Assembly: GCA_965263355.1 (NCBI GenBank)
Contig: CBDHHL010000046.1
Span: forward strand, 1 to 64,000
DNA from: Leptolyngbyaceae cyanobacterium
Lineage (GTDB): Bacteria > Cyanobacteriota > Cyanobacteriia > Phormidesmidales > Phormidesmidaceae
Direction: 5' to 3'
DNA: 64,000 bases
Shown: positions 20,348-49,322 of the stretch, piece after piece
Layout of the letters: each line of letters starts with the position of its first letter
Position numbering within the stretch: position 1 is the stretch's first letter
Translations under genes and position numbers: made by a program
The notes under the pieces: generated by a model
Seen by the model: the letters and a program-made list of their open reading frames with translations, nothing else
Told to the model about the DNA's origin: nothing
Databases searched by the model: none

Positions 20348-21472
20348 TTAATATTGCGCTACATCAGGGAAATGCAAACCGTCATCGACCTTATTGTTTT
20401 CAGCGCCTAGGTCTTCCTCAGCCGCTGGTAAAGCTGCCGCTGAACCAGTATCCAACTGGGTAGGACGTACACTTCCGCGATAAAGTTCTAATTTCCGTAC
20501 TGCGGCAATATTGATAATGCCCATACCAATGTCTTCCCAACACTGCCAGGTAATAACATTCGCAACTTTATCAATATAAAACTTCAACTTGTTCAGCATG
20601 TAAAACTTGCCGAAGAATTGCGGAGAAGTAAAACTGTAAATATTTCCAGGACGCAAAATGTCAGACTTAACTGTACGGCATACGCGCTTGCCTAGCATTT
20701 TGTTATATCGGTAACCTTCGACAACAGTCTCAGATTGAATCTTGTCGCCGTTGTCTTCTACAGTCCACTGTAGTTGGTCATCATGATCTGGTTCACAAAA
20801 TAGCAGAAGGTCACAACGAAGTCTGTTGCTACTATGTAGCTTGAACAGACTAACCAAGTCAGGGCGTTGTACAGGTCTAACTGTGAAGTCAGTTCCATCC
20901 GCAGCCAGCGCTAAAGAGCCCTTTACAACTGAAGTAGCTTGCGCATTTGCATTACCTGCACGAATATTAGTAGCATTATAGGCCACCGTCGTCGTCGTGT
21001 TTGTGGTGGTTTGTAGCGCCTGGACTGCTGCTTCAGAGTAAATAAGACCTTGTCGATCTTCAATCTCTTGAACATCATTTATCGAATTGTTTTCAATAAT
21101 TTTGGTTATAGGCGCTTCATAGGCAAGAAGCTCCTGTTCTGGTTTCTCAAATTTCTCGGAAGAGATTGTGAAGAATGGGATCTCTGCCTTTGGCGCTCTG
21201 ATCAATCTTGCGGTTGGCTCACCACGGAATGTCATGACCATTGCACGTGATTTAGGCTCAACATCAACAATCTTTACCAATGTATCGTGATTAGTAGAAC
21301 GTTGACAGTCCTTACGAGTCACTGGCTCAGGAGGAAGAATATGTCGAAAAAAAGAAGTCTCTCTAAGGCGGTCACGAATAAAGGTACCACCTACCTCAGC
21401 CATCTTCGCTTTGCCTTCTGCGCTGTCCAGCCGTTTGCTAAATAGTTCTACTGTAGCATCTACCAAGCTCAT
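20348..21472 (-). CDS. Major capsid protein (HK97 fold inferred)
   Basis: 374 aa; IRDRLRETSFFRHILPPEPV, EIPFFTISS, NDVQEIED; follows the protease, scaffold and decoration genes; GGAGG Shine-Dalgarno. Confidence 0.85.
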   Translation of the reverse strand: MSLVDATVELFSKRLDSAEGKAKMAEVGGTFIRDRLRETSFFRHILPPEPVTRKDCQRSTNHDTLVKIVDVEPKSRAMVMTFRGEPTARLIRAPKAEIPFFTISSEKFEKPEQELLAYEAPITKIIENNSINDVQEIEDRQGLIYSEAAVQALQTTTNTTTTVAYNATNIRAGNANAQATSVVKGSLALAADGTDFTVRPVQRPDLVSLFKLHSSNRLRCDLLLFCEPDHDDQLQWTVEDNGDKIQSETVVEGYRYNKMLGKRVCRTVKSDILRPGNIYSFTSPQFFGKFYMLNKLKFYIDKVANVITWQCWEDIGMGIINIAAVRKLELYRGSVRPTQLDTGSAAALPAAEEDLGAENNKVDDGLHFPDVAQY

Positions 21473-21944: not shown

Positions 21945-22289
21945 TTATAATTCTCCTGTAAGAACAAAGGCCTCTAAAGCCTCCTTAGAGTTTACACCAT
22001 TAGAAGCCCTCTCCGAAGGAGAGCCTAAGACATTTACATGGCTGGCCAACTTAACTGCCTCACCCACCACACTCATGTCTTCGTGACTTAGGATGCTAGC
22101 AATTTTCTCGTCCATGGTTTGATCCGCACTCAAACCTTTTTCTTCCATCTCTTGGGCAATACTTCGAGCACGTTCTCGATGTTCGTACTCTGCTAACTTC
22201 ATCCGAAGTTCTTCATTATCCTTACCCAATGTAGCCACTGTCTCAGAGGCTACCTTAAGTAGCTGTTTAGCTCTCGCCACATCGGACAT
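21945..22289 (-). CDS. Scaffold-like coiled-coil protein, K-x-A rich
   Basis: Helical; KVAS, KLAE, KIAS, KLAS, KEAL; position before decoration and capsid genes. Confidence 0.6.
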   Translation of the reverse strand: MSDVARAKQLLKVASETVATLGKDNEELRMKLAEYEHRERARSIAQEMEEKGLSADQTMDEKIASILSHEDMSVVGEAVKLASHVNVLGSPSERASNGVNSKEALEAFVLTGEL

Positions 22290-22290
22290 A

Positions 22291-23313
22291 TCAGCCCTCC
22301 CCTGAAATTAACGCAGATATGTCCTCTGAATGCTCAGTAGCTATCTGGTTGAGAGCAGAGTTACCTGCCGCCGCTGTTTTAATTGCTCGAGTCAATTTTT
22401 GTTGGTTCTCAGAAGATTCAGAAGCCCACTTTGTAAGCCAGGTCTTCACCGAGGCCAGCTTAATGTCTGCGGAGGAAGCGTGATTTAGCTGAGACTGAAG
22501 AACAGAGTCGTTGGACTGACTCACACTCTGATCAAGATATGGAGCTACGCCTGCGTTTATCTCTTTCAACTGTCCTTTTGATGCCGCTGCTACAGATTCT
22601 GGAGAGACAAGGTGGTGACCCTTTGGATTACAAGGAGAACAGACCTCACCTAAATCATAGGGTGTCATGATTGGCTGTGTACCAGCTGTAATAATAGCGC
22701 CAGAGTCCTCTGCTGCGGACTTATTCATCGCAGCATTTAAAACACCCTTGATAGCTCCCTTAGGACCTGTCAAAGCACCCTTAACTACCGCATTTGCCAG
22801 ATTACTCTTCCTCGAGTCTTCCGCCTCTTTTATCAATTGAGAAGCGACTGGCGTTGGCACAACAGACTCTTGAGCAAGTTTAGATAGCCAGGCAATCTTA
22901 GCTTGTGCAATCTTATCAACCATTGCTTCGCTACCGCCAGGACAATCATTTTCTGTATCTGGTAGCTTGGAACCTTGAAGTGCAACGCGCATTGGAGGCT
23001 GATCAGTGGCTGACCCAGACTCTCCAGCATCCAGACTAGTACCAGATACATTAGATTCCATGACAACAGGATCTTGAGTAGCTAGCTTTTCATACAAAGC
23101 AACTAACTCAGCCACCTTCTGTCGAGAGGTTGGAGTTTCCTGACCCAAAGCCTCTGCCATGGTACCGCAAGCTGAGGCTACCTTTCTCCAATCTAGAGTT
23201 TGGTCAGACGCAACCTTTTCCTTAAGTTGTTTTGAGGACGGAGGACTCCATTGAGCGACTTTTTCCCTGCCTGCCTCAATAGCCTCCTCCAACATTTTCG
23301 TTACTACACTCAT
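22291..23313 (-). CDS. K-x-A-rich head core/scaffold-like protein
   Basis: About 15 of about 26 lysines have Ala at +2. Confidence 0.65.
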   Translation of the reverse strand: MSVVTKMLEEAIEAGREKVAQWSPPSSKQLKEKVASDQTLDWRKVASACGTMAEALGQETPTSRQKVAELVALYEKLATQDPVVMESNVSGTSLDAGESGSATDQPPMRVALQGSKLPDTENDCPGGSEAMVDKIAQAKIAWLSKLAQESVVPTPVASQLIKEAEDSRKSNLANAVVKGALTGPKGAIKGVLNAAMNKSAAEDSGAIITAGTQPIMTPYDLGEVCSPCNPKGHHLVSPESVAAASKGQLKEINAGVAPYLDQSVSQSNDSVLQSQLNHASSADIKLASVKTWLTKWASESSENQQKLTRAIKTAAAGNSALNQIATEHSEDISALISGEG

Positions 23314-23316
23314 AGT

Positions 23317-23565
23317 TCACGTCCTAATCATAGGTGGTGGCATCGACTTTGTACTTGCGGCAACACCACTTGCTGTCGCTGGAGGAGATGCATTAGTAAG
23401 AGAAAAATTCGTCCCCTTGGTCGAAGGTTTCAAAGATACCTTACCTGCCTTTGATGACACCACTGGCGAAGCCGGAGTCCTGTTATAATGAGATGCATTG
23501 GTTAAAACAGCATCAGCCTGTTTCACCAAACTGCTCAACTCTTCTACAAATGAATCCGGCAACAT
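23317..23565 (-). CDS. Small protein with F-x-x-E-L...K-Q-A leader and S/P/A/K-rich tail
   Basis: MLPDSFVEELSSLVKQAD. Confidence 0.6.
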   Translation of the reverse strand: MLPDSFVEELSSLVKQADAVLTNASHYNRTPASPVVSSKAGKVSLKPSTKGTNFSLTNASPPATASGVAASTKSMPPPMIRT

Positions 23566-23568
23566 GAC

Positions 23569-24390
23569 TTACTCCAAGCCATATTCAGCTGCGATCTCAA
23601 AAGCCCTCTGATTAATCAAATCTTCGAAAGATGCTTGTTTTTGCAGTTCTTGTTCAAGACGAGACTCAGCCAAGATATCTAAAAGAGAAGCTTCCTTCTT
23701 TTTGCCTCGCATCTTAGATACTCCATAAGCAGTACCACCAGCACCAGCACCATAAAGAGCACCTGTTTGAGCAGCGCCTCTCATAATATTCTTTCTTGCT
23801 TGAGGGAGGGTAGCATTTCGAACTGCGTCTGAAGCACCTCTCACAGCGCTACGCTGCTTCATCCCTTTTCGTAACCTCTTAGCCGTTGCTGCATCCCTAA
23901 GAGCCCCACCTGCCCGGCCAACAGCACCATATGCCTTGCCAGCACCACTACGAGCAGCACCGTATGCTTTGCTAGCAGCACCACGAGCCATTGAAGCTAC
24001 CGAAGCTTCTTTGTTCATAGCATTCAATTCATCTACGAATGCATGGGCCATGATTCTTCCAGAAGCATCTGCGTTCTCTGCAATCTTATGAAGCTCCGCA
24101 GTCTTCTCTTCATCTTCCTCGTCGTCTTCTTCTTCTTCTTCTTCTTTAGCTATTTTTTCCCATGCTGCAGCCGTTTCTATAGCCAAAACAGAATCCTCTC
24201 CAAACAATTCTGCAGCTACCTTATACAACTCAGGGATGGATAAGTTTTCCAAAGACATTTGATCGCCAGACTCTTTAAGGAGAAGGTCTTCTACAATTTG
24301 AGCCTGTGCTAGTTTTTCAACTGTAAGATCTTCCATTGTTGCTTGATCCGCGCCGTAAACCATATTCTGAAGGTAATCGTTCATAGACAT
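23569..24390 (-). CDS. K-x-A-rich head protein: acidic N-half plus a cationic GALYG module
   Basis: EKLA, KVA, EKIA, EKTA, KIA, KEAS (twice), KQAS; Gly/Ala/Arg-rich module between the two KEAS sites. Confidence 0.75.
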   Translation of the reverse strand: MSMNDYLQNMVYGADQATMEDLTVEKLAQAQIVEDLLLKESGDQMSLENLSIPELYKVAAELFGEDSVLAIETAAAWEKIAKEEEEEEDDEEDEEKTAELHKIAENADASGRIMAHAFVDELNAMNKEASVASMARGAASKAYGAARSGAGKAYGAVGRAGGALRDAATAKRLRKGMKQRSAVRGASDAVRNATLPQARKNIMRGAAQTGALYGAGAGGTAYGVSKMRGKKKEASLLDILAESRLEQELQKQASFEDLINQRAFEIAAEYGLE

Positions 24391-24467: not shown

Positions 24468-27419
24468 TCATGCTAAAGGCGAACCTTTTGTAGGTCCAAG
24501 TACTATTGCAGATGCCAGATCTCGGACAGCTTGATTGATAAGCTTGTCCTGCATAATAGCTTTTGCCAAAGTAGCACTACCCAAAGAGGCAAGGAATGGA
24601 TTTTTTGCAAGAAGTCTTCTTAAAAAGCCGACATCTTTTCCCTCTTCCATATCTCTTCTAGCACTCGAAGACAGGAGCAATACTACAGGCACTGTTGCTG
24701 CTGCTGTCCCCAAACTAGCCAACTCTGAAGCACTAGCCACCTTATGAAAGATATCAGAGTCTGTTAGGTTGAATACGGCTTGCTTCACCCATGGGTGGTC
24801 AGCCACAACCTCAGACGCGATATCCATCGATTGTTTAGCCATCTGCTCTTGATACCAAGCATAAGCACAAGCTACTTTCGCGAGAAGAGGAGAATCTTCA
24901 ATTTTTAAACTTTTTTGATCTCTTATTGGAGAAATTTTCAACTTTAAGATTCTTCGACAGAGTACCGGACGAAGGTATGACCTAGACTCTATCCAAGGTC
25001 TAAGTACTTCAGCAATGTTTGTATCGAACAAAGAACTGGAAATTTGACCACACCTTAGAGGACTTGTACCTGGCGAAAATATCAACCCGGAACGCTCCAA
25101 AGACTCCGCCAGTTGTGGATATCCGTTAGAGCGCAAGAAACAACTCTGAAATTCATCAGGCTTTAAATTGATGCCCAAGCCTAAAGCAGTAGATAAGACT
25201 TTTGAGAAGTCCTCTCGTGACAGGCTATCTTGAATAACTGATTGAAGACTGGGCTCAGAAAGATCCAAAACTTTAGAAACTAGTCCTGTAACACCACTTG
25301 GGCTAATTACCTTTTCTAAATCAGCGACCTTTACAGAAGCTTCTTTAGTAATACCAGAACCAGTGGCATGTGTTTTTTTGCCTTCAGATGCCCAAACACG
25401 TTGCCTCTTTCTAGCTTTATCAAAATTAGAAAACAGATCTTGAAGATCTGTTGAAGCAGTCTTTTCTTGTATAGGCACCTCTAATTTTAAAAACATGCCT
25501 CCATCTTGTAAGGAGCTATTCAGAAAAGGCTTAGGATACCTATTTGAAGCAGACCCTTTTGGAACATCCGGCCCACCATGTTTTTTTCTCCAAGACTGGT
25601 ACAGTTCATGAACCTTATCTGCATGCACAAACTTAGCTCCTATATCCATAGATGGCCAGACTAATCGACCGTCCTCGTCAGCAGACATAGTTGCTTTTTC
25701 CACATCTAGGGTCTTAGTGGCTTTAATAGCATCTCTTAAAATTTGAGAACCGATTCCACGTCTTCGATATGCAGGCTTCAAATATAAGCTATCATATTCA
25801 ACTCTGTGTTTTGGGTTGAGCCAATTTTTGTGCAAGGACAAATCAGCCGTACCATAAGAAAAAGGATGTTCTCCCTCTTCCATAAAAATAGGCCTACCTT
25901 CTTGATCTGTCATTTCAACCGAAGCACTGCCCATATTCCAGAGTCCCCACAAAGCAGGACCTTTAGACCTTATTGAGATGTCCGCAACACCCTTATCTTT
26001 GTAGTTACGTATGTCCACCGCGTCCTCAAGGGCACGTTTCAATTCCTTGTGTCGTTCAGAACGTGGAATATCTTTCATACCAGCGAGTTTTGACACGTGT
26101 CTTTTCTTGTGTAACTTGCTATTTTTACTAGGGGCGGATCTTAAAGGTGACCCACAAATTTCGGACATAGGGGAATCCGCAGCCAGCTTCTGAGCTGGCG
26201 TAGAACGCAACATTTTCTTAAATGCCTCTACAGACATCTCAGTCATTGACCGCAAGAATTCGGGTTTGTCGTAATGTTCTAGATAAGCCTGTTTGGCCTC
26301 ATCAATGGTATTGAAGCCAATCATAACTTTGTCTTCATCATAGGCGCCCTTATTTTGACCCCTAACAAAGTTCTGGTGAGCCACAAATACCTTGGAGCTG
26401 TCTAAATTTTCGCCCACGTAGACATCAACGGCATCCCCATCAACACCTTTAGTGCCCTCTATCTCTCCGTAGTGTACCTTCATCCGGCGAGACCAAGTCT
26501 TACCCGTCCTCCAAGTACCTCTTGGCACTTCTATGTTCAGCTTTAGTCCTTGCCAAAGAATGGTCCCGGCATAAGGTTTCTGTTCTCTGTGAGGAGGTGC
26601 TACCAAGTTTCCATAGAGTTCTTCAGCATCAATAATGGACTGAGGAGTACCGGAAGCGAGTTTTGCCATCGTCTTGGCTGTTCGATCAGCCCCTACAAAA
26701 ACAAAACTTATGTCGAAAAAGTTTGGGTAAGGATTAATTACTCCAACCTGCCGACCATCACTTAAAATCCTATTCATTCCAAGTTCAGTCACGTGGACAC
26801 AATAATCCTGTGGGGTGCGGGATTTGTGTCCACAGATGGTGCATATGTCGTAGGGTGTGCGGCAGCCCATTGAAACATCTGGTAGCTCTCCTCGATCAAG
26901 TCTAGCTAGAAATGTTTCAGCACCGTGCAACAAAGCTGAAGCCCTGTTTATCAGAACAACAAGCTCAACTCGTTTCATTCGCGGATTTAGACAAGACAGA
27001 ACAACCTTTCCAAAAGCTCTATTCGGGTCTTTATTCTTATGGTGCACAAAAGGATGGGCCTTTAAGAATGTACTGTAACCGTAAGGAGGTATTTTACGCT
27101 GAGTAAACGTGTCAATTGGATGGTTTGGAGGTCCTAATGTTTGTGCACCACAAAGGGCTCTTTCCACATCACAGTGATGGCTTAACGCAGGCCAGTAATA
27201 ATTATCTCCATTCCTATTCTGCCCCCAGTACTCAGAACCTCCCAGAGCATTCACGAGCACGGCTAAATGCTCTTGATCTGATTTGTACGTCCTAAGCCAA
27301 TCTCGAACCTCCGGGACGTAATCTCCTGCCAAACGACGTATGGAGCTGCCTTGTCTAAAAAGACGAAATATAGGATCCCCAGAAAAAGGCATCGAAAACG
27401 TGGAAAGCTTGGTTAGCAT
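24468..27419 (-). CDS. Prohead protease fused to an inorganic-pyrophosphatase-like domain, a GNAT domain and a C-terminal region
   Basis: Protease: HHKNKD, DVSMGC, CTICG, FFDISFV..GAD. PPase-like: NIEVPRG, YGEIEGTKGVDGDAVDVYVG, DEDKVMIGF. GNAT: LYLKPAYRRRGIGS. Start placed at MLTKL after the upstream stop. Confidence 0.8.
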   Translation of the reverse strand: MLTKLSTFSMPFSGDPIFRLFRQGSSIRRLAGDYVPEVRDWLRTYKSDQEHLAVLVNALGGSEYWGQNRNGDNYYWPALSHHCDVERALCGAQTLGPPNHPIDTFTQRKIPPYGYSTFLKAHPFVHHKNKDPNRAFGKVVLSCLNPRMKRVELVVLINRASALLHGAETFLARLDRGELPDVSMGCRTPYDICTICGHKSRTPQDYCVHVTELGMNRILSDGRQVGVINPYPNFFDISFVFVGADRTAKTMAKLASGTPQSIIDAEELYGNLVAPPHREQKPYAGTILWQGLKLNIEVPRGTWRTGKTWSRRMKVHYGEIEGTKGVDGDAVDVYVGENLDSSKVFVAHQNFVRGQNKGAYDEDKVMIGFNTIDEAKQAYLEHYDKPEFLRSMTEMSVEAFKKMLRSTPAQKLAADSPMSEICGSPLRSAPSKNSKLHKKRHVSKLAGMKDIPRSERHKELKRALEDAVDIRNYKDKGVADISIRSKGPALWGLWNMGSASVEMTDQEGRPIFMEEGEHPFSYGTADLSLHKNWLNPKHRVEYDSLYLKPAYRRRGIGSQILRDAIKATKTLDVEKATMSADEDGRLVWPSMDIGAKFVHADKVHELYQSWRKKHGGPDVPKGSASNRYPKPFLNSSLQDGGMFLKLEVPIQEKTASTDLQDLFSNFDKARKRQRVWASEGKKTHATGSGITKEASVKVADLEKVISPSGVTGLVSKVLDLSEPSLQSVIQDSLSREDFSKVLSTALGLGINLKPDEFQSCFLRSNGYPQLAESLERSGLIFSPGTSPLRCGQISSSLFDTNIAEVLRPWIESRSYLRPVLCRRILKLKISPIRDQKSLKIEDSPLLAKVACAYAWYQEQMAKQSMDIASEVVADHPWVKQAVFNLTDSDIFHKVASASELASLGTAAATVPVVLLLSSSARRDMEEGKDVGFLRRLLAKNPFLASLGSATLAKAIMQDKLINQAVRDLASAIVLGPTKGSPLA

Positions 27420-27426
27420 CTTACTA

Positions 27427-29016
27427 TTACTTCTTTCTTTTTTTCTTTCGCTGATATGCCGCAGCCCCACCAACTGCAACTCCCCCATAGAGGGCCCCTG
27501 ATCGCGCTGCGCCTCGCCTTATTTTTTCTCTCCCATATTGTTTCATTGGCTCCGCGAGGTCCTTAGCGTTAGTTATAATCTCTTGGACACGTGGCTTAGA
27601 ATATAGATGGCCTAGACGTTTAGCATTTAAACCCTCTCTAATATCCCTAAAGGTTGCAGCATTACGCACACCTTTTAATACTTTCTTAGTCCCAGACAAG
27701 ACTCCAGCCGTTTTGGGCGGAGCTGATAAAAAGGAGCTTTGCTTCTCTTGGGATTTCTTTTTATGTCTCTGATATGCCGCGGCGCCAGCGCCAGCAACTC
27801 CTCCATATAGAGCCCCTGATCTCAACACGCCTTGCCTTATTTTTTCATTTCCTGAGTCTTTCAAATTTTGACTCGTAGCACTCCAAGAATCAGAGCTCTT
27901 ACGAGGATGAAGTCTTTGGTGATCACTTCGAGCATACGTATTACCTCGCCTTCTAGCATTTAAACCCGTTCTAATATCTTTAAAGGTTGCAGCGTTAGCC
28001 ACACCCCTTACTGCTTTTTTAGCCCCAGACAAGACTCCAGCGGTTTTAGGTTGGGCTAAATTTTTTTGGACCAAGTCATAAACTGAGCTCTTCTTTTCTT
28101 TAGATTTTGCTCTTCTATAATATTGAAAGGCACCGCCTGCCCCTATTGAAGCTGCACCATAAAGTTTTCCAGCATCCTTGCGCCCTTCCGAGACCAAACG
28201 CTTACCGTATGCCGCCTGAACATCTCTAGCAAGCCCGCTTGTGTCTCCTAAAGTTTTTTGTAGCTTTCTGCCTTCTCTCACCTTTTTCAAGGTAGCTGTA
28301 TCTCCCAACCCCTTAGCTATATTTTTTACCGTGGATACAACGGAACTTTTCTTTTCTTTAGGTCCAGGCCTAGAATTTTTGCCTCTAGAGTCTTTGTTTT
28401 TTGAATCATCAGTTGGTCGAGGTCGTAAGGCTTCTTGTTCTTGTCTGACTCTGGGATTGCCTTTTCCAAAGGCTATATCTGCCATACCCGGCTGAATTAT
28501 CATAGATGATTGACCTGAACTTCTAGCCAGACTCTCTCTGGCTCTTACAAGCTCATTGACGGTCTGTATAGGCAATCGACGCATGTCTATGACTTGTTGG
28601 ACAAACTCTGAAGCTACCAATGGATCAGATGCATATTCTGGATTTAAATTATGCAAAGTATTAAAAGCCAACTCCACTTTGCCTGGATCTGCTTCTGCTA
28701 AACCATCATTAACAGCAAGCATATTGTTGAAAGCTATCTCTTTCCTTTGCCTTGATCCAATAGAGTTGATCAACTTTCGACCCTGATCTACTGCTGTGTT
28801 TGCCGCAGCATAACCAAGTGTTGCTAGACCTGCCGTAGCTAAAGACTCGCCAACATTTCTAAAAGCTTGTCCAGCATCGAGAGACATCTTCGTTAGCAAG
28901 TCTTCCAACTCTGTTGAGACCCCAGCATCCTCACTAGCCTGCTTCAAAAGTGAATCAGCATTTCTTCGAGCTTCGATAATCTCTTCTTGTGAGAAACCCA
29001 TTTGTTCTAATAACAT
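27427..29016 (-). CDS. Head-module protein with three tandem cationic Gly-rich C-terminal modules
   Basis: Repeated KTAGVLSG...NAATF.DIR.GLNA...EKIR.G..RSGALYGGVA...AAAYQR. Confidence 0.8.
   Translation of the reverse strand: MLLEQMGFSQEEIIEARRNADSLLKQASEDAGVSTELEDLLTKMSLDAGQAFRNVGESLATAGLATLGYAAANTAVDQGRKLINSIGSRQRKEIAFNNMLAVNDGLAEADPGKVELAFNTLHNLNPEYASDPLVASEFVQQVIDMRRLPIQTVNELVRARESLARSSGQSSMIIQPGMADIAFGKGNPRVRQEQEALRPRPTDDSKNKDSRGKNSRPGPKEKKSSVVSTVKNIAKGLGDTATLKKVREGRKLQKTLGDTSGLARDVQAAYGKRLVSEGRKDAGKLYGAASIGAGGAFQYYRRAKSKEKKSSVYDLVQKNLAQPKTAGVLSGAKKAVRGVANAATFKDIRTGLNARRRGNTYARSDHQRLHPRKSSDSWSATSQNLKDSGNEKIRQGVLRSGALYGGVAGAGAAAYQRHKKKSQEKQSSFLSAPPKTAGVLSGTKKVLKGVRNAATFRDIREGLNAKRLGHLYSKPRVQEIITNAKDLAEPMKQYGREKIRRGAARSGALYGGVAVGGAAAYQRKKKRKK
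27430..28050 (-). repeat. Intragenic imperfect tandem duplication with 333-bp period
   Basis: CCCAGACAAGACTCCAGC-GTTTT-GG recurs at about 27691 and 28024, along with other shared blocks such as CGCCTTATTTTTTC/TGCCTTATTTTTTC. Confidence 0.9.
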
Positions 29017-30011
29017 TATACATTACCTCTTCTTAATGGATTTTTGGCTGAGGGGTCTCCAGCCGTACGACCTTGAAGAGCCCCAGCAGTTGCCATTGAT
29101 GACGCACCTAAGCCTGTCGCTATTGTTTTAGGTGCGTTTAAAACCCCGTTCAGCAGTGTCTTGGCTACGGAAGATTTTTTCTGAAGCTCCCCATACACCT
29201 CATCCATACGTCTCAATCTATCCTCACTATCCTGCCTAGCAAATAACAACTCTGCTTGTTTTTCCAAGGCAGTAATATAACCACAGAATGATCGGACCAG
29301 AGGATCTTCAAAATTGGCCAACTTCTTAGGCTGTCTGGAAGCTTCCAGAGATTGGTCTAAATGCTCTCCTAAATCAGACAATACTGCATGCGCATATTTT
29401 GGCGCATAGGCACTTACCAAATTTACTACATCAGATACATCACAACCATTGCCTAAATACTGGCTAGTTTTAGTGTGAAAATCTGATTGAGCTTGCTTTA
29501 GTAAAATCCCATTTCCTCTTATGCCGTCATCCAAATCGCCCACTACGTGCTGTAACCCAGCTCGTAATGTTTCGAAGTTAGATAAACCATCGTCATCACA
29601 GTCCGCAGCGATCTTCTCAGGGTTGTAAGAAAATAGTTCCTCTAAAACCCTATCTTCTTCCTTGCTCTCAAAATTTGGAAGCTCACGAGAATAGTCTGAA
29701 CACGCAGCAGTTTTTACAACTGGAGTAGCTAACAAGTTCAATGTAGATAACACTGCTTTAGGTTCTGCTATCTCAAACTCGATAGTTTTTTGAGCCTCTT
29801 TTTGAAACCCGAAAAGAAAAGTGTTGCGATTTGCAGACTCCACAACTCGACGTACCTGTTCTGAAGTCATGTCCGATTGTGCTTGAGCTAATTTAACCAC
29901 AGCATCATGTAATGAAATGTCCTCGTGGAGAAACATCTTTGAAGCCGTCTTGCCCATTTCTTCAAGGTCTATTGAATTACTACCACCAAACATCCCCAAA
30001 TATTCTTGCAT
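29016..30011 (-). CDS. K-x-A-rich head-module protein
   Basis: Start MQEYLG with GGAG Shine-Dalgarno; KTAS, KLAQ, KEAQ, KTAA, KIAA, KQAQ, KLAN, KQAE, KKSS. Confidence 0.75.
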   Translation of the reverse strand: MQEYLGMFGGSNSIDLEEMGKTASKMFLHEDISLHDAVVKLAQAQSDMTSEQVRRVVESANRNTFLFGFQKEAQKTIEFEIAEPKAVLSTLNLLATPVVKTAACSDYSRELPNFESKEEDRVLEELFSYNPEKIAADCDDDGLSNFETLRAGLQHVVGDLDDGIRGNGILLKQAQSDFHTKTSQYLGNGCDVSDVVNLVSAYAPKYAHAVLSDLGEHLDQSLEASRQPKKLANFEDPLVRSFCGYITALEKQAELLFARQDSEDRLRRMDEVYGELQKKSSVAKTLLNGVLNAPKTIATGLGASSMATAGALQGRTAGDPSAKNPLRRGNV

Positions 30012-30052
30012 TAGGACTCCTGACTCAGAAAAATAACACACAGGAAAACAGC

Positions 30053-30376
30053 ATGGAAAACAGTACGCCATTAATTTCAATTGAAGAAACTGCAGCCCGA
30101 TTAGGGAAGTCTGTTTCCACAATTTATCGCTTGTGCAAAAACCATACGCTACAGATGCAAAAATGTCCGATAACTCAAATATCTAAGATATCACTTCAAA
30201 GTGTAGAACGATACAGACTAACAAGACTCAATGTTATAGACCAGCTGCTTAACCGGATTGATCAGTTAGAAAGGAGAGTAGCTCACCTAGAGAAAGAAAA
30301 ACTCGAGACAGGCGAGTCAAAGTCCCACAACCCTAAAGCCATAAAAAATATATTGAGAGACATCCACGATATCTAA
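30053..30376 (+). CDS. Excisionase/MerR-like HTH DNA-binding protein with coiled coil
   Basis: LISIEETAARLGKSVSTIYRL; LLNRIDQLERRVAHLE. Confidence 0.8.
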   Translation: MENSTPLISIEETAARLGKSVSTIYRLCKNHTLQMQKCPITQISKISLQSVERYRLTRLNVIDQLLNRIDQLERRVAHLEKEKLETGESKSHNPKAIKNILRDIHDI

Positions 30377-32110
30377 TCAAACAATGTCCAACTCTTCTCG
30401 ATATAGTCCTTCATAAAGAATATCTTCCGTCTTTTCTGGGAGAATAACATCACGACGAGGCTTGTACTTCATGGACGCCAAAAAGCAATAACACAAAGAG
30501 TGGAAAGTATCATCAGAATCACTCGGGCCTCGCTTATAAACATTTTGCTTCATAGTTTCACTATATTCAGAAAAGATATTCAGCATATCTGAAGCAAAAG
30601 GTGATTCCCATTCAGACCAGTTAGGAAATTGAAATACATTTCTACGCTTTACAGCATTAAAAACGTCAGACATAACTTCCGTGCGATGGCATAAAAATCT
30701 TGGCACTCCTAAAGACGCCTCATAAGATACTTTCTTCTTCTGCCTACCTATCCACTGATAGCGACATATTTTTTCCGCCCCGAATCTCCGTACAAGCTTA
30801 TCATTTTGATAAAAGCCTCCACCGTAGTCCACCCCAATGTAAATCACATTAAACATCTCGCACAGACCAAGTATGATATCCAATTGATGGTCTGGTTCTG
30901 CTTCTTTTCCCTTGCACTGCTTGGCGTAAAAAATCGAAAACTTGTGTGGAGCCCAAGGAAAATAGCCACCCAGCAAAATAACAGTGAAGGAGTTTTTTTC
31001 TCCAGTACCCCAGTCGATACCCATGAATACTGGATGTGCAGCATACTTCTTCTTCACATCAGCATAAGCAAACATTGAAAGCTCTTCAGAACAGTTATCT
31101 AAAACATCTTGTTGAGTTAATGGGCGGGTACCGGAGTCAAAAGATCTACCCAAAACCTCATTATAAAATTTAACCCGAGAATAAGTCTCATACTTACTTA
31201 TGATGTCCTGCCAATGAATCCAACTTACAATCAACTGAGGAATTCTATAACCCATATATGGATTACTCAAACGAACGTTCGGATTCATAGAAGCCCATTG
31301 AGCATCAGGATCATTTGGGTCAATCCGTTTCCCGCATTTGTCGCAAATAAGGCCAAATTTACCTATAGAGGCCTCAGAGGTCACATTCCAATGCCAAGAA
31401 CTAGGATCGTTTGGAGTCCCGTGCGAACGACAAGGAATCACCCACTCATTTTGCGTAGAGAATTTTGACCAGTAATGCTCGATTGCATTATCTAATGATT
31501 TAGGTGTACCGGAATATGTAAACAGCCTATGCTCAGAGTGAGAAGCACACTCTTCTATAACAGGAATATTGTCTAACAAGACATCCTGAAACTCATCGAT
31601 GGTAATCAGATCTGCGGGGACTCCACGACAACGGTCAGCATTCAAAAATGCAAAACGCAAAGATACTTTAGAACGATTAATAAACCCCTTTTCCATGAGG
31701 TTCGCTGTCAATTTCACATTTGTAAAAGATTGAAGTACCTTAGAAGTCTCTATGGCCTCTTGAATCCTAGTTCGAGAAAACTCTTTTGTTTGCATGTGTG
31801 ATGGAGAAACATACAAAGCTCTAAAACCAGGAAACAAAAATGCATAAGATAACATCTTGTTCCCAAGCAAAGTTGATTTCTCAACCTGCCTGCCCGCCAT
31901 TAGAAGTAGACGATTAGCATCTGTGTCGTAAATCTCTCGAAGGTACGGCCGACCTACAAACGAAAAATTGGTGTAATCTCCTTTTACTGGAAGAAAAAAA
32001 GCCGCCTCAGTGAATTCAGAAATGGAAATAACCAAAGTCGCATCGTCTGCAATACGGTCTTCTGAATACTCATCGGTCAATGGCTTGTCAAACCGAGCAG
32101 CATCATCCAT
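30377..32110 (-). CDS. Terminase large subunit
   Basis: RPYLREIY, variant Walker A AGRQVEKST, Walker B ITIDEFQD, SGTPK, nuclease MGIDWG, DDTFHS. Confidence 0.9.
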   Translation of the reverse strand: MDDAARFDKPLTDEYSEDRIADDATLVISISEFTEAAFFLPVKGDYTNFSFVGRPYLREIYDTDANRLLLMAGRQVEKSTLLGNKMLSYAFLFPGFRALYVSPSHMQTKEFSRTRIQEAIETSKVLQSFTNVKLTANLMEKGFINRSKVSLRFAFLNADRCRGVPADLITIDEFQDVLLDNIPVIEECASHSEHRLFTYSGTPKSLDNAIEHYWSKFSTQNEWVIPCRSHGTPNDPSSWHWNVTSEASIGKFGLICDKCGKRIDPNDPDAQWASMNPNVRLSNPYMGYRIPQLIVSWIHWQDIISKYETYSRVKFYNEVLGRSFDSGTRPLTQQDVLDNCSEELSMFAYADVKKKYAAHPVFMGIDWGTGEKNSFTVILLGGYFPWAPHKFSIFYAKQCKGKEAEPDHQLDIILGLCEMFNVIYIGVDYGGGFYQNDKLVRRFGAEKICRYQWIGRQKKKVSYEASLGVPRFLCHRTEVMSDVFNAVKRRNVFQFPNWSEWESPFASDMLNIFSEYSETMKQNVYKRGPSDSDDTFHSLCYCFLASMKYKPRRDVILPEKTEDILYEGLYREELDIV

Positions 32111-38292: not shown

Positions 38293-41200
38293 TTAGTATT
38301 TCCATGCTTCATCTGGGTTCTTGGATTGCCCAAACTCTAATCCAAATGCCGCAGCGGGGATAGGGTGTGTTCCGTGCAGATCACTGACCCATCCTTCAGC
38401 AGCGCCGTCAAGGATTGTATCTTTTAAGTGCGTTGCCTGCATCCGAGCAAGCCAATCAGACCTCAATTCTCTTGGAAGAACGTTGGTGCCTTTAAGGATT
38501 GGTCTAGCAAGTAATTGTTCCCCTTTAGTCACTGAGGAATTGTATCTGTTCACCTCGGAAGCAGCAACCTTGTCTCCCTTTAGGAAAGTTGGGTGGTCTT
38601 TTGGGTCTTCTATCTCCGCCAAATTGGTAAGCGTCCTTACAAACACTTCCGCGTTTTTACGCAGGATGGGCGTACGGCTATAACCACCCAAGTTGGTCAG
38701 TTCATCCGTAACGTAATTTCTTACAGCAGAGATGCCAGTTAGTGGAAGCATCTCCAAAGGATTTTTAGGGCCGCCAGAAAGTGCATCTCCTTTTTTAACT
38801 TTTTGCCCCTTAGACACAACAGGAGATTGTCTAGCAGATAAATAATGTTTAGTGCCCGACACATAAATATTCCAACCTCCAACCACTTCATCTTTTTCAA
38901 TCTTGTCTATATTGCCAGATTGTTTAGATAGGACTGCGGAACCTGGCAAATTCTGTGGGAACTTCACCAGCTGCACAACCCGGTCAAACTGACTTGCCAC
39001 ATCGGAACCTTTGGCTCCAGCAACGCCACCGGTGTGAAAGGCATTCATAGCCATCTGTGTCAAAGGCTCACCTATTGCGTGCACAGCCTTTACTCCCAAG
39101 TTGTCTCCCTTTTCTGGGAATTGACCCATTTCATTTAGACCATAACAACGAGAGCACACGCCATCATGAGCTTGGCATTTTAGAGGTGTTCGTGCAGTAA
39201 AGGCTTTTACTCCGTTGTTCTGCATGCGCGTGAGCATTTGGGGCGTAACCACTTCTCCCGCCTTCAGAACACCCTTGCCTTTCAAAGAAACATCCACAGC
39301 TAAAACCCTATCGATAGCTTGATTGTCTGTGGGCGAAAACATGTTTCCTTCTTTCGTTCCACAATCTATCTCAGACACCAGATGGTCCATAGATGTCTGC
39401 ATCATCTCTTTTACCTGAGCACCAGGAAGCTGCGTTCCCTTAACACGACCAATAGTACCCTTTCTAGCGCCATACATAGAAGCCCAATAACTAGCAGTAT
39501 CCAAACCTTCAGAGTAAGACTTCTCTATAGAAATAGGGACAATACGCTCTTTACTGTCAACAACTGCAAGAGGTGTGATTGTCATTTGCTTAAACTGGTC
39601 CCAGTTACCTCTGGCTTGAGCCTTAACCCACTGATACATCTTGTTATTAGATTTATCGAATTTGGGCTTTGTTGCCTTATCTAAAACAATGCGAGCCTTA
39701 TTGTACAACTCTGCAAGAGCCTCATTTCTCTTGGCCTTGTTTCGAACTGACTTGTGGATCTCTCTTTCTCTTTCTTTAACTTGACGAAGGATATTATCCC
39801 TAGGCCCTTTCATGGCCTTAAAGTCTTCTAACCCAAAACCATAACCAGTCGCATGCACATTACCCATGTCCTTCAATGTGTCCGCTACATCCCGAAAAGT
39901 TTCTGCATCAGCTTTTTGCCCAATCTCACTCAAAAGCTTAGTTAAGTTCCTCTTATCAAGTTGTTGACCTTTAAATAGGTGCTTATATTCCTTAGGGAGT
40001 GATTGCTCTATAAGCATACGTCCAACTGTGGTGTGCTTAGCTTTATTTTCAGAGGCCTTCTTAATTCTATCCTGCAAGAAATTAGGGACCTCTTTCGTCG
40101 CATCTCTGATCGTAACTACGTCTGTGATCCCAATCTTTCCTTGTTTAACCGCTTTGGCTGCCGCAGCACCTGTTTGAAACACCAAGCCTGTTTTCTTTCC
40201 ATCTGTTCTTGTTAATTGGTGCAGCCCCAATAAGGATTCATGAGTAGGTCTAAACATCAGACCTCCATGAGAAGAACTAAACAGGTTTTTTGACGGAAGC
40301 ATTTTCCAGGCCTCATCTACCGCCTTATTAGAAATAGGGACAAAGGCAGCCATCTTATCTCCGTCAAAGTCGGCATTAAAACCACCTGTAGCGAGAGGGT
40401 GAATTTTAATCGCACTGCCTTTTGTCAAGACGGGCTTAAAGGCTTGGACGCCGTATTTATGTAATACAGGGTCACGCTTCAACAGTACAGGCCTGCTTTT
40501 CATCTCAGCTTCTAACATGTTGTAGACGATCGGCTCTTTGTCTTTTATAGCCTGCACTGCTTGTCCTGGAGCATAGCCAGATTGTCTCATTCGTCGCATG
40601 ACGAAAGGTTTATAAGCCGCCATTGCAGCAGATTCAGGCAAAGCGACCTCATCCATTCCCAAACTAGGCTCTGGAACGATTACGCCTCGCATGGACATAT
40701 CCTGCCGTTTACCAATGACTTTAGATTGGAAGAAAGCATTCTTCGGTTGAGTCATGCCCGACTTTCCGCCAATCAACTCAAGGATGCCCTTTCGGTGTCT
40801 TTGTTTGTACTCCATCCCAGTTAAACTCAGACCCTTTAGACCGTCATACAGACTGGCACCCAAAGATGTCATTTCTTCCGCCTCTTTTGGTACACCTAAA
40901 TCTTGGAGATCTTTTAACTGTGTGTTTATCGTACCCAACTGACGATACATCTCAGTCACATCGTCAGTCCTTATGTCACCGCTATCTAACACAGTTACTG
41001 GTCGCATTTTGGGCGGTAACACAGGAATATGTTGTAGCGTATACGCCTGACGTGCATTCAACTTTCGCTCATTCAGCACTCTCAGATATTTTATTTTTCT
41101 AGAAGCATCATTTAACCTGGGGCCTTTCAAACCTTGTACAGAAGCTTCCAGCTTTTGTAACTCACTACTAACATCGATTTTATCTAGTGCAGAAACTATA

Positions 41201-44200
41201 GCCTCTGGACCTGTGGCACCATCTATCTTTTGAGACCCGGCAATAACATTTTCATAAGCCTTTTGAGTTAGCCCTAACAAGGAACGTATAGGCTTCTCAA
41301 ATGTCGGGTTAGGGAGACGTTCTGTTAATTTCATGTGTCCCCAACGCTCACCTAACCCATGAGTTATAGAAGTCGTTCCCGTAATTTTCGGATCGAACAA
41401 GCCTCCAGGCTCAGGCAAGATCTCATTCGCGCTTGAATGCTTCAAAGGTATATCTGGCTTGGTGATTTCGCCATTAGACATTGATAGGACTTGCTCATCT
41501 GTAAGTGGCCCTAAGTGTAATTTGTTGCCCTCTTTATTTACGTCAACTCCCATAGTTTTGAGGTACCCAACAAATTTACGATAAGCGAAAGGAGTTTCTG
41601 GGGCTGGAGGAACTTCTCCATTTTGTAAGGCTGCCCAGTAATCATCATTTCTTTCCCCCTTTATAGCCTGAAATTCGCGTATGTTCTCTCGAGCACCGTG
41701 AGCCAACATGGCGTAAAGTCCCCCAGAATCCATTGTGACGCCAGAAGCTTTTCCACCTTGTTTGGGTTGCATGTTTGAATCGTAACGACCTACATTTCTA
41801 GCAGACACACCCTTTTCAGCCATGTGCTCGAGCTTTAGAATGTATTGTGGACCAGTCAAAGTTTCATAAACTTCTCCCGATCTTGGGTCAGTTATCTTTT
41901 CCTTATCTGAAATACCTACCTTCTTTAAGTCCTTCAAAACCTTTTCTGTATAATCTTTTATGTCTGCATTAAAGTTATCAACAACGTATGGCTTTCCAGT
42001 TTTTTGGGCTATCTTTCCCGCTGCTGTTTCCAAACACTGACCTAAATTAATTCTCGTACTAATTCCCGCAGGGTTTAGAAGTACATCAACAGGTCGACCA
42101 TTCTGTTTATGAGGCATCTCATTATCTGCAACAATATGAGTTACAATACCCTTATTTCCATGCCGACCCACTAACTTGTCACCAATAACAACAGGAGACT
42201 GCGACTTTACATGTACCGTGATGTCTTTACCGCTTTTAAAGACTTCCACAACTTCGCCTTCATAATCTGCTTCCCAAATAACTGGCTGAGCCTTTACAGG
42301 ACGAAATGCTGATTTACTAATCTTCTGAAGCTCTTGTAACTCTCTTGATGCTTCTGTCTTTTTGAGCACTGCAATCAACAAATCCCCGGGCTTTACACGT
42401 GTACCCTTTTTCACAACCCCAAGTTCATCTAAATTATTTGATTGTCGGTTTGTCCACTGGCCTGCAGTTTCTGCCATGAATCTGTTTTTATCTAAAATCG
42501 TAGACTCACCAGCTTGTACAGAGTGTCGTGTCATATGCTCTGAAGTGAGTTTTTTAGCAGCAGTTTCGGAGATGACAATTCCGTCCTCAAAGTTGTATCC
42601 CTGATAAGGCATGTAGCTGACTTCTAGATTTTTTCCTAAGGCCAATTTTCCATTACGTGTAAAATTTGTATCTGCTACTAGCTGGCCCTTCTTTACAGTA
42701 TCGCCCACCTTAACTAAGGGCTGACTATTTATGGCAGACTTATTATCATTCAAAGGGAAATCTTTGTAGAGTTCTACTTCATGTTTTTTTCTATTGGTAC
42801 CTTGAATAATAATACGGTCTTCTTTTACATCTATAACTTGACCATCCACAGGAGCAGTATGGGAGTTAAGCTTTCCTAATACCTCTTCGAAAGTAAAATT
42901 ACCGTCCGTCTTGTTTTGGACAAGAGGCTCTTCTCGGTCAACCAAAGCCACCGACTGCTCTAACTGTTTAGCCGCCACTGAAGTTCGGTTACCTTGATTG
43001 TTTTGCAAAAACGGGATGGAGTTAGCAGAAAAATCAAACATACCCTTTGGACTACTAATTACATATTGAACCTTATTGGCTGATACAGCACGTACCTCAT
43101 TAGAGGCATCCATAACCTTAACTTCCGTATTCCTAGGAACGTAATCCTTGCCTACCTTCTTGTACTGATCTGGGAATGCAATAATGGCCTTATTTGCTTG
43201 TTCTGAATTTAGCCACTCATATTGTTTGGTCTTTAGGTTGAAAACACGGGTCTTCAACTCTTTACCATGCTTAGCAGCGCCTAGTGCTATTTGAAGGATA
43301 CCACCAATTCTTGAAGATTCTGGTGTTTGAACAGGATCTAAAAAGCCCATCTGAGTTGGATTTATAGACTGAGCTTCAGGAGTAAATTGATTCTCATTCA
43401 AAATACCTCCTTCACCGAAGATAGTTGTTCTACGATGACCGCTAATAAACCCCATCGGATTTAGCTGCTTGGGGCGGTCAGACACAGAACTAGAAGAGAA
43501 AAAACTATCTATAGCCTTACCAAATGTATCTATCGTAACAACCTTAGAAACCGAGTCGGCATTATCTATTTTTCGCTTTAGCTTTCTTTGAATTTCTGAA
43601 CGTCCTCGAGTACTGATTCGCTCTTCTAAGTGATCTTCTGCCCCAAACACATCTTTGAATTGTAATTGGTCTCTCTCATCAGCTTCTTCCACACCACGTA
43701 TAACATTTAAAAGCTTCTTACTGCCAAGGACTAGAGCAGAACCATCTACTTGTTTTAATTCCTTGCCTAGAGTCAACTTAGTTGAATCTGGTCTCAACTC
43801 CGTTTTGTCAAAAGCCGCACGTATATTTGTTTGTGCTTCTTTCAAAGAGTCGGAAGATTGGCCTGTAAGTCGTTGACTAAGATGCAAAAGATTTGACGTC
43901 TCTACCCGCCCGGTAACTCGGTTGGCATTAAGGATTTCCTTTCCCCAAGTTCTCTCTAAATCTTCATCATCCACGCCCAACGTTTTTAAGATCGAGTAAG
44001 CAGGATAGCTTTTAGTGCCATACTGAATTCGGAATTTCTTTGTGTCGGAATCAAAGTCCATGCTGAACCCTAACCCCTTTGACAGGTTCCACTCCTGAGA
44101 AATACCACCCGCTTGAGTTTCTTTTGTGTAAACACCAGATTTTAAGCGGAGTTGATTGTGAATTTGCCGCTCTTCACCTCTTACAATGTATGAAAATCTT

Positions 44201-44493
44201 CGAGTTGGTTTAGGCAAAGTCCCCAAAGAAACGCGTCCTGAATCAATAACTTTGCCTGTTGCTTTATCTACCAGCTCAACCTCTCCGTAGATTGGAGCTC
44301 CCCACGTTTTGCCTTTCAGCTTTACATCCTTCTGTTTTGCTACGGAATCCACATGAGTGTTGTCATCCTTCACAGATACACTCTTTAGCCTCAGGATCCG
44401 TTTTTTACCTTCAACAGGGAAATGCGTGGAGATAGATTTTATTGTCGCTTTGCGCAACGCCTCAAAAGTCTCTTGTGGATCTAAACCGGCCAT
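38293..44493 (-). CDS. Single-polypeptide DNA-directed RNA polymerase (beta-beta' fusion)
   Basis: Beta motifs GYNFEDG, GDKLVGRHGNKG, LNPAGISTRINLGQ, YILKLEH; beta' motifs GKRQD, RDPVLH, NADFDGD (40357-40377), GARKG, GEPLTQMAMNAFHTGG. Confidence 0.97.
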   Translation of the reverse strand: MAGLDPQETFEALRKATIKSISTHFPVEGKKRILRLKSVSVKDDNTHVDSVAKQKDVKLKGKTWGAPIYGEVELVDKATGKVIDSGRVSLGTLPKPTRRFSYIVRGEERQIHNQLRLKSGVYTKETQAGGISQEWNLSKGLGFSMDFDSDTKKFRIQYGTKSYPAYSILKTLGVDDEDLERTWGKEILNANRVTGRVETSNLLHLSQRLTGQSSDSLKEAQTNIRAAFDKTELRPDSTKLTLGKELKQVDGSALVLGSKKLLNVIRGVEEADERDQLQFKDVFGAEDHLEERISTRGRSEIQRKLKRKIDNADSVSKVVTIDTFGKAIDSFFSSSSVSDRPKQLNPMGFISGHRRTTIFGEGGILNENQFTPEAQSINPTQMGFLDPVQTPESSRIGGILQIALGAAKHGKELKTRVFNLKTKQYEWLNSEQANKAIIAFPDQYKKVGKDYVPRNTEVKVMDASNEVRAVSANKVQYVISSPKGMFDFSANSIPFLQNNQGNRTSVAAKQLEQSVALVDREEPLVQNKTDGNFTFEEVLGKLNSHTAPVDGQVIDVKEDRIIIQGTNRKKHEVELYKDFPLNDNKSAINSQPLVKVGDTVKKGQLVADTNFTRNGKLALGKNLEVSYMPYQGYNFEDGIVISETAAKKLTSEHMTRHSVQAGESTILDKNRFMAETAGQWTNRQSNNLDELGVVKKGTRVKPGDLLIAVLKKTEASRELQELQKISKSAFRPVKAQPVIWEADYEGEVVEVFKSGKDITVHVKSQSPVVIGDKLVGRHGNKGIVTHIVADNEMPHKQNGRPVDVLLNPAGISTRINLGQCLETAAGKIAQKTGKPYVVDNFNADIKDYTEKVLKDLKKVGISDKEKITDPRSGEVYETLTGPQYILKLEHMAEKGVSARNVGRYDSNMQPKQGGKASGVTMDSGGLYAMLAHGARENIREFQAIKGERNDDYWAALQNGEVPPAPETPFAYRKFVGYLKTMGVDVNKEGNKLHLGPLTDEQVLSMSNGEITKPDIPLKHSSANEILPEPGGLFDPKITGTTSITHGLGERWGHMKLTERLPNPTFEKPIRSLLGLTQKAYENVIAGSQKIDGATGPEAIVSALDKIDVSSELQKLEASVQGLKGPRLNDASRKIKYLRVLNERKLNARQAYTLQHIPVLPPKMRPVTVLDSGDIRTDDVTEMYRQLGTINTQLKDLQDLGVPKEAEEMTSLGASLYDGLKGLSLTGMEYKQRHRKGILELIGGKSGMTQPKNAFFQSKVIGKRQDMSMRGVIVPEPSLGMDEVALPESAAMAAYKPFVMRRMRQSGYAPGQAVQAIKDKEPIVYNMLEAEMKSRPVLLKRDPVLHKYGVQAFKPVLTKGSAIKIHPLATGGFNADFDGDKMAAFVPISNKAVDEAWKMLPSKNLFSSSHGGLMFRPTHESLLGLHQLTRTDGKKTGLVFQTGAAAAKAVKQGKIGITDVVTIRDATKEVPNFLQDRIKKASENKAKHTTVGRMLIEQSLPKEYKHLFKGQQLDKRNLTKLLSEIGQKADAETFRDVADTLKDMGNVHATGYGFGLEDFKAMKGPRDNILRQVKEREREIHKSVRNKAKRNEALAELYNKARIVLDKATKPKFDKSNNKMYQWVKAQARGNWDQFKQMTITPLAVVDSKERIVPISIEKSYSEGLDTASYWASMYGARKGTIGRVKGTQLPGAQVKEMMQTSMDHLVSEIDCGTKEGNMFSPTDNQAIDRVLAVDVSLKGKGVLKAGEVVTPQMLTRMQNNGVKAFTARTPLKCQAHDGVCSRCYGLNEMGQFPEKGDNLGVKAVHAIGEPLTQMAMNAFHTGGVAGAKGSDVASQFDRVVQLVKFPQNLPGSAVLSKQSGNIDKIEKDEVVGGWNIYVSGTKHYLSARQSPVVSKGQKVKKGDALSGGPKNPLEMLPLTGISAVRNYVTDELTNLGGYSRTPILRKNAEVFVRTLTNLAEIEDPKDHPTFLKGDKVAASEVNRYNSSVTKGEQLLARPILKGTNVLPRELRSDWLARMQATHLKDTILDGAAEGWVSDLHGTHPIPAAAFGLEFGQSKNPDEAWKY

Positions 44494-49231: not shown

Positions 49232-49322
49232 CTCTTCTTGCATTCTAGTTCAAATGACGACTGCACCAAATAACCTTGAAAATTGCTCGTGAACTCACGT
49301 CACTCCAGTTTATACAGCCTAC

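Follow-up and report, generated by a model that had tools for sequence, protein, structure and literature searches.

Why should the protease that matures a phage capsid carry two unrelated enzymes in its middle? The question is posed by P0001, an open reading frame (ORF) of 983 amino acids (aa) without an internal stop in the 64,000-nucleotide stretch of contig CBDHHL010000046.1 (assembly GCA_965263355.1, filed under a Leptolyngbyaceae cyanobacterium), here called the window and meaning that whole stretch. In P0001 a protease (aa 1-255) is followed by an inorganic-pyrophosphatase-like domain (InPase, 281-408), an acetyltransferase cassette of the GNAT type (447-652) and, last, a C-terminal domain that is conserved; K-x-A tripeptides stand at the junctions. 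We consider it probable, on balance, that P0001 is a polyprotein in which a prohead serine protease carries cargo that is assembled with it, freed by cleavage after alanine and trapped in the head. Its parts are as follows.

24468..27419, minus strand: the prohead protease polyprotein P0001
26655..27419, minus strand: protease domain (aa 1-255) of the T4 gp21/assemblin fold, with invariant H122, H127, S183 (in VSMG), D236 and S238
26655..26663, minus strand: K253-L-A255 (AKLASG, 26649-26666), the predicted self-release site, ~27 aa upstream of InPase
26196..26579, minus strand: InPase domain (PF18823, aa 281-408), from its Pfam match and invariant residues
26181..26189, minus strand: K411-L-A413 (QKLAAD, 26175-26192), directly behind InPase
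26082..26090, minus strand: K444-L-A446 (SKLAGM, 26076-26093), ahead of the GNAT cassette
25464..26081, minus strand: GNAT cassette (aa 447-652), with a PF00583 core at 506-575 and the motif YLKPAYRRRGIGS
25455..25463, minus strand: K653-T-A655 (EKTAST, 25449-25466), behind GNAT
25323..25346, minus strand: K692-E-A and K697-V-A, ahead of the C-terminal domain, present in 59/63 and 38/66 aligned rows
24735..25322, minus strand: conserved C-terminal domain (aa 700-895), largely made of helices, found also in cargo-free homologs and ending in K893-V-A895
24471..24734, minus strand: C-terminal helices (aa 896-983), in which the hydrophobicity of P0001 peaks (best 19-mer at aa 900, mean Kyte-Doolittle 1.74)

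The ORF and the AKLASG, QKLAAD, SKLAGM and EKTAST motifs lie exactly where the first-pass annotation, made from the letters alone, had placed them. The start codon aligns with the starts of homologs; an alternative start at an upstream ATG (27488) was rejected, as homologs start at the 27419 position. An assembly chimera was likewise ruled out, because the whole gene is spanned by single contigs from two runs of one sample with 0 differences and because the closest homolog, P0003, has the same architecture. A full-length structure model (66 alignment rows, mean predicted local distance difference test 71, predicted template modelling score 0.37) is confident for the protease, InPase and C-terminal domains, while GNAT is badly modelled because just 2 of the 66 rows contain it. 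Sites 411/444, 653, 692/697 and 893 fall inside or at the edge of low-confidence segments (413-453, 637-666, 687-708 and 891-897), in line with motifs at the domain boundaries; six more K-x-A tripeptides lie inside domains, and the first site stands some 27 aa from InPase. The closing K893-V-A895 of the C-terminal domain is kept in 43/65 aligned rows. That domain found no match in Pfam, PHROG or NCBIfam and no usable one in the Atlas, and fold searches with the whole model (the domain was not folded alone) returned generic helical rows only.

The N-terminal domain makes P0001 almost certainly a prohead protease. The protease fold that had been proposed for it is borne out by an AlphaFold2 model whose best VIA-align match is T4 gp21 (5jbl; Z 9.7, root-mean-square deviation 2.9, 131 residues aligned), with herpesvirus assemblins next (1vzv, Z 8.3); in Foldseek herpesvirus proteases rank first, with E above 0.001. 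The domain matches phage G gp19 and, weakly (E 0.0049), the head maturation protease family phrog_18299; a Pfam scan of P0001 gave no peptidase-family match by which to place it in S77, S78 or S80, and none of any kind in this domain. S183, H122 and H127 are invariant in 17/17 homologs, S183 and H127 in 66/66; they are the putative catalytic Ser and His. In the proteases of many homologs (L022-L025, P0008, P0023, P0041, P0042, P0061, P0068, P0069, P0072, P0144 and others) an intein, often with LAGLIDADG, sits directly behind the VSMG motif that holds this putative catalytic Ser.

What lies between protease and C-terminal domain is anything but constant. Of 312 homologs, 297 have both end domains (15 were dropped for an incomplete match to either), and the slot between them ranges from 5 to 1106 aa, the median being 440 aa in the 123 proteins that have InPase and 55 aa in the 174 that lack it. 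The variable cargo slot suspected at first pass, which was to be sought by aligning homologous proteases and looking for swapped domains, is therefore real. Besides InPase and GNAT, slots hold NUDIX (P0027), SET (P0075), RRM (L051) and DUF6321 (P0206) modules, many glycine-zipper segments, and DUF5661 (P0007, P0029, P0031, P0042, P0065, P0072 and L039), whose cassettes also match non-protease ORFs in four loci. Clustering was confined to cassettes of at least 60 aa, and 88 of these 164 are singletons, many cassettes being of low complexity or glycine-rich. Cassettes opening with YHGT or WHGS look ADP-ribosyltransferase-like by inspection (P0007 aa ~510-700, P0165 aa 291-428, L117:3614-5647); none of them matched a named family. 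The ancestral form is probably a protease, a short K-x-A-rich linker and the conserved C-terminal domain, ~520-600 aa in all.

The two passengers singled out at first pass both exceed their Pfam cut-offs, but they are not alike as cargo. InPase (PF18823 over aa 285-404, E 4.6e-37, 127.3 bits against a cut-off of 26.8) has a type I pyrophosphatase (PPase) fold, soluble PPases being the top Foldseek rows for its region (E 1.3e-3); the family is characterised as being without the beta-hairpin insert in the account of Iyer et al. (PMC5512222). Y317, D327, D332, D361, E362 and K364 are invariant in 104/104 proteins, and position 329 is D or E in all 104. In a FastTree phylogeny of 221 proteins (the 263 non-redundant ones less 42 with inteins or long inserts), InPase is present in 65/65 members of the window's clade (support 0.86), in 20/27 of a second clade and in two isolated proteins; among the best 119 homologs listed (540-1721 aa) 101 carry it, including all of the top 87 other than P0001 itself. 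The clade is intact in both the InPase and the protease trees, and the distances of the two domains correlate (Mantel rho 0.835, 0/300 permutations, n=87), which rules out a freely swapped passenger for this clade. Because of that correlation InPase is, as its sequence has it, a stable, co-inherited resident of this clade's protease, its putative acidic ligands intact.

What InPase does there is another matter. The functions suggested at first pass are those already offered by Iyer et al. (PMC5512222), and one of them, helper of a packaged RNA polymerase (RNAP), is unsupported as an obligatory role: 35 of 36 related records encode RNAP and 16 encode InPase, and the near-complete ones have RNAP in 12/12 and InPase in 6/12. 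The same InPase family is, moreover, fused to PB1-like portals and to Cbastvirus ClpP-type proteases. Recruitment to several head-assembly proteins suggests selection for location in the head, whatever the substrate. In the Cbastvirus phages Larrie and phiST InPase forms the N-terminal part of a fusion with a ClpP-type protease whose tail is acidic (L098:1734-3455, L099:3911-5983). Five records whose sampled protease is without InPase encode it in other ORFs. Among InPase-bearing ORFs of related phages (L100, L101, L102, L103, L104) some are small and hold nothing else, one frame of 1221 aa has a helicase-like part as well, and one of 621 aa a glycosyltransferase-like part, as judged by inspection. 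One record (G011) has two InPase matches (C1:118073-118462 and 127806-128207), one in a protease-family ORF and the other in a 758-aa frame.

GNAT behaves quite differently. Its Pfam match (PF00583, aa 506-575, 27.3 bits against a cut-off of 20.7) lies in a cassette that a three-sequence profile recovered from at least five carriers, a minimum set by the word-seeded searches: P0001, P0003, P0047, P0242 and L117:5620-8226. All five keep the acetyl-CoA-binding motif A, LKP-x-Y/F-RR-x-GIG, with I for L in one. The cassette stands behind InPase in P0001 and P0003 and ahead of it in P0047; P0242 (InPase-GNAT-SET) and L117:5620-8226 have no protease domain at all, and the L117 phage keeps a short-slot protease of the P0001 family with InPase and GNAT on other head-region genes. 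GNAT homology begins right behind K-x-A or K-x-S and ends at K-x-A in 4/5, the next K-x-A in P0047 coming ~30 aa past its end. The SKLAG site of P0001 is missing in P0003, with K-x-S or K-x-A in its place in the three other carriers. PF00583 was precomputed in 2 of the best 119 homologs listed and found in one more by a later domain scan; a second GNAT type occurs in P0038 and, weakly, P0025. This distribution marks GNAT as a sporadic, mobile cassette shared with other head polyproteins, and we infer that cassettes have been exchanged between the protease slot and those polyproteins by recombination. No match to the GNAT cassette was found in cultured phages, viral contigs (single query) or metagenome contigs; Atlas and PDB leads are weak, the best PDB match having E 0.0075. 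A further match, L118, has E 3e-4. In run X1 a low-depth contig of 1070 bases matches 46 bases of the GNAT region (window 25821-25866) and then diverges, perhaps from a relative sharing the cassette.

P0001 has 13 K-x-A where 5.6 are expected, a count reached in 5/1000 shuffles. In the slots of the 263 non-redundant proteins used for motif counts, K-x-A occurs 1445 times against 516 after shuffling (2.8-fold), whereas nine control patterns are all at or under expectation, among them KA (403/508 observed/shuffled), KxxA (509/515), AxK (470/519), RxA (243/303), KxG (228/374) and KxS (273/338). The logo of the site is roughly [ML]-E-K-[TLVA]-A-[SAE]. In 103/104 homologs InPase ends no more than 17 aa from a K-x-A, and at the protease end the 263 proteins have A at P1 in 206, G in 34, S in 5 and no site in 18. 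Around 15 hand-delimited cargo domains the nearest strict site is at a median distance of 33 aa on the upstream and 13 aa on the downstream side, with 3 inside, against 67-106, 31-135 and 7-13 for control patterns, a difference that partly reflects motif density. Nor does the enrichment stop at the protease gene: within the window, 10 head-module ORFs hold 77 K-x-A against 29.1 expected, and 14 other ORFs 46 against 47.3. K-x-A is thus, on these counts, a putative code of the whole head module. One ORF outside the capsid-terminase block (48122-49243, minus strand) has 10 K-x-A against 1.7 expected and no family match.

The surroundings of the gene supply both its likely substrates and the one point at which the motif meets a published cut.

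20348-21472, minus strand: major capsid protein, by library match
21398..21406, minus strand: K23-M-A25 of that protein, aligned with Ala27 of phage G gp27
21945..24390, minus strand: three K-x-A-rich, scaffold-like ORFs between the protease and capsid genes, likely substrates
30377-32110, same strand as the protease: terminase, by library match
38293..44493, minus strand: fused beta-beta' RNAP of 2066 aa, which marks the phage group

The protease gene thus sits between terminase and major capsid genes, all on one strand, and DNA polymerase A, DnaB, primase and RecA are encoded elsewhere in the window; the P0001 record sits on a 162.5-kb contig. The window belongs to the genome of a tailed phage, an uncultured one of the jumbo type, and P0001 is its capsid-maturation protease. 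In encoding both beta and beta' RNAP subunits this phage shares the mark of the mReC phages, and it fits that RNAP-encoding type as set out in PMC7481178. Among 229 records reached through the protease domain, the cultured relatives are Vibrio phages D69/D181/D148, Salmonella phage Arash, Bacillus phage G and Bxz1-like actinophages. In the capsid alignment the positions of the window's K23 and A25 are K in 70/75 rows and A in 74/75. Mature gp27 of phage G has 255 of its 282 residues by N-terminal sequencing (Hua et al., PMC5646251, Table 1); a loss of 27 residues would place the cut after Ala27, which aligns with this family's capsid K-x-A. This one published datum points to a prohead-protease specificity after Ala. 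Taken with the motif statistics it makes cleavage after K-x-A likely, and the self-cleavage supposed at first pass gains this indirect support, the sites themselves remaining predicted ones.

Several smaller features of the window deserve mention. The flanking ORFs 27427-29016 and 23569-24390 (both minus strand) contain repeats of basic segments that end in hydrophobic stretches rich in Gly/Ala; they resemble the glycine-zipper cassettes of relatives' slots and have no family match. DNA polymerase A (57085-60357, plus strand) is interrupted by an intein/LAGLIDADG insert, and a small HTH_17 ORF (29912-30376, plus strand) lies on the opposite strand between terminase and head genes.

How might such a protein work? 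The polyprotein would first be built into the prohead, as its family, its gene position and the presence of the Arash homolog in particle preparations suggest. The protease would then cut behind the Ala of exposed K-x-A sites in itself, in the scaffold-like proteins and in the capsid N-terminus, with phage G as the anchor. Predicted cuts after A255, A413, A446, A655, A694/699 and A895 would give pieces of ~29, 18, 24 and 22 kDa, of which the folded InPase (18 kDa, aa 256-413) and GNAT (24 kDa, aa 447-655) fragments would remain in the head while short peptides leave it, as the T4/SPN3US precedent would have it. A linker that is cut at maturation may tolerate insertions, and for that reason could have become a cargo slot, with cassettes swapped between it and other head polyproteins and ending at K-x-A/S signals. 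In the last and least supported step, the freed enzymes would enter the next host with the DNA, where InPase would most likely hydrolyse pyrophosphate (PPi) or a nucleotide-linked pyrophosphate and GNAT acetylate a host or phage protein; that the cargo is ejected and active in the host falls, in our judgement, just short of an even bet.

A number of observations weigh against this scheme. The cuts in P0001 and its close relatives are predicted ones, and motif presence by itself predicts no cut, with 6 of the 13 K-x-A in P0001 inside domains (357, 376, 461, 548, 848, 879). The tripeptide is also in excess within domains, if less than in slots (InPase 153 against 81 shuffled, C-terminal domain 762/435, protease 327/232); homologs share descent, so that motif counts are not independent, and both the strict motif and the set of 10 head ORFs were post hoc choices. 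At the phage G capsid cut P3 is Ala, not Lys, which leaves just P1=Ala anchored, and the 27-residue loss presumes an intact C-terminus. InPase is lacking altogether from 20 of the 36 related records (many of them fragments). Arash gp222, a P0001 homolog, was recovered from particle preparations with 84.93% coverage, as was RNAP, and the K-x-A-rich gp223 with 100%, in a list of 116 proteins that includes non-structural enzymes and perhaps contaminants (PMC10585845); that list shows neither cleavage nor clean virions. Finally, propeptides of SPN3US are mostly cleared from heads (PMC10052503), and the cargo could go likewise.

This last point introduces the best of the rival explanations, which we nonetheless regard as unlikely, that the slot is a disposable propeptide, cut and then cleared or acting late in the producing cell, with most cassettes neutral hitch-hikers from neighbouring K-x-A genes. 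The many singleton and low-complexity cassettes are what it would expect, as are the scarcity of GNATs among homologs, the many cargo-free relatives and the exit of most propeptides from the SPN3US head. It does not sit well with an InPase whose catalytic residues and clade-wide retention are complete, nor with repeated fusion of that domain to head-assembly proteins, which implies selection for being in the head. Folded domains of 18-24 kDa also exceed the short peptides that generally exit.

Retention in the head could instead serve the particle itself, InPase clearing PPi or guarding the Mg/nucleotide balance during assembly or storage and GNAT acetylating phage proteins, with no ejection needed. 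Terminase ATPases, however, release phosphate, not PPi, and InPase is missing from half of the near-complete relatives. Such a role is favoured by the fusion of InPase to portals, proteins that remain part of the capsid (PDB 9b41; PMC5512222), and GNAT, SET and NUDIX domains could act on phage proteins or nucleotides, but the quick turnover of cassettes fits host conflict better than housekeeping, a consideration that leans on the same source, and we rate this explanation as very improbable. We give equally little credence to an uncut polyvalent protein, packaged or working whole like the N4 virion RNAP with K-x-A as a linker or targeting signal, for although N4 virion RNAP and ArdC carry peptidase domains yet stay unprocessed (PMC5512222, section 8), K-L-G replaces K-L-A at the protease end in the 34 of 263 proteins noted above, many of them clade members, and peptides of Arash gp222 cover 85% of the protein (PMC10585845), the motif coincides with the cut position of the phage G capsid protein, and is dense in scaffold-like proteins of the kind that such proteases degrade, and related proteases self-cleave (PMC10052503).

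Cleaved and retained cargo, the reading that we prefer, has partial parallels in several known systems. With T4 gp21 and SPN3US gp245 P0001 shares its fold (5jbl) and would share C-terminal self-cleavage and a three-residue motif common to head proteins, but their cargo lies on separate genes with N-terminal leaders, not within the protease. T4 gp21 cuts after Glu, at L/I-x-E. SPN3US gp245 also cuts after Glu, at A-x-E; it removes its own C-terminal propeptide at this three-residue motif, and head proteins are trimmed at short motifs (PMC10052503). The herpesvirus assemblin-scaffold polyprotein has the same fold and an N-terminal protease released from a C-terminal part, but no enzyme passengers. 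Herpesvirus assemblin cleaves after Ala, often before Ser, with a hydrophobic P3 where P0001 has Lys. The PB1-like portal (Pa193 gp19, PDB 9b41) and the Cbastvirus InPase-ClpP fusion likewise place the same InPase family on a prohead-built protein; in contrast to P0001, they use another carrier and a terminal fusion, with no hypervariable slot seen and no GNAT. Phage G gp19 (300 aa), Arash gp222 (491 aa) and D69 (471 aa) have homologous proteases enriched in K-x-A, but are cargo-free. Bxz1-like proteins (Myrna gp97, Alice gp90, Finch gp17) have a homologous protease, K-x-A enrichment and a variable middle within 989-1511 aa (L112:6836-9805, L113:6788-10423, L114:6836-10105, L115:6788-11323), but differ in their C-terminal part, in being without InPase and in using R-x-A as well. 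Their K-x-A is roughly twofold enriched, as is R-x-A in Finch and Myrna; the middle parts include an L5 gp82 domain in Alice and a weak methyltransferase match in Myrna, whose gp97 is annotated, probably wrongly, as 'tape measure'.

The closest conceptual kin are the polyvalent proteins. Iyer et al. (2017; PMC5512222) described InPase, GNAT (two RimI-like families) and assemblin-like domains among them, proposed processing during assembly, and placed the peptidase always C-terminally in the architectures given there. P0001, with at least two unrelated effector-type domains in one polypeptide and a virion gene context, is a polyvalent protein in this sense, and shares with those of PMC5512222 the several unrelated enzyme domains per virion-linked polypeptide, the InPase and GNAT domains, the assemblin-like peptidase and the shuffled architectures. 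It falls outside their C-terminal-assemblin subtype, however, since its peptidase is N-terminal and is the core head-module protease, and two conserved domains enclose its cargo, with a defined motif at the boundaries. The concept was foreshadowed by the polyvalent proteins; what is new is that the core protease is N-terminal and that the protein has inside it a hypervariable cargo slot, bounded by the motif and sharing cassettes with other head polyproteins, together with the link to the phage G cut. In the open-access literature no description of the P0001 architecture or of the K-x-A motif was found.

As a tentative but serious possibility, then, a large group of RNAP-carrying phages may possess a plug-in cargo system, in which cassettes bounded by K-x-A/S are swapped among head polyproteins, the essential protease included, and those in its slot are packaged in as many copies as the protease itself, cut free and injected. 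If so, the slot would amount to an inventory of effectors that act early against the host (GNATs, NUDIX, SET, ADP-ribosyltransferase-like domains and InPase) and would give a natural way of getting proteins into capsids. It would offer a concrete, testable path from a polyvalent phage protein to separate enzymes, with predicted sites, fragment sizes and a Ser to mutate, and the cultured relatives Arash, Vibrio D69, phage G and the Bxz1-like mycobacteriophages make the cleavage rule testable now. Furthermore, the occurrence of the same InPase on three different head-assembly proteins sharpens the question of what InPase does there.

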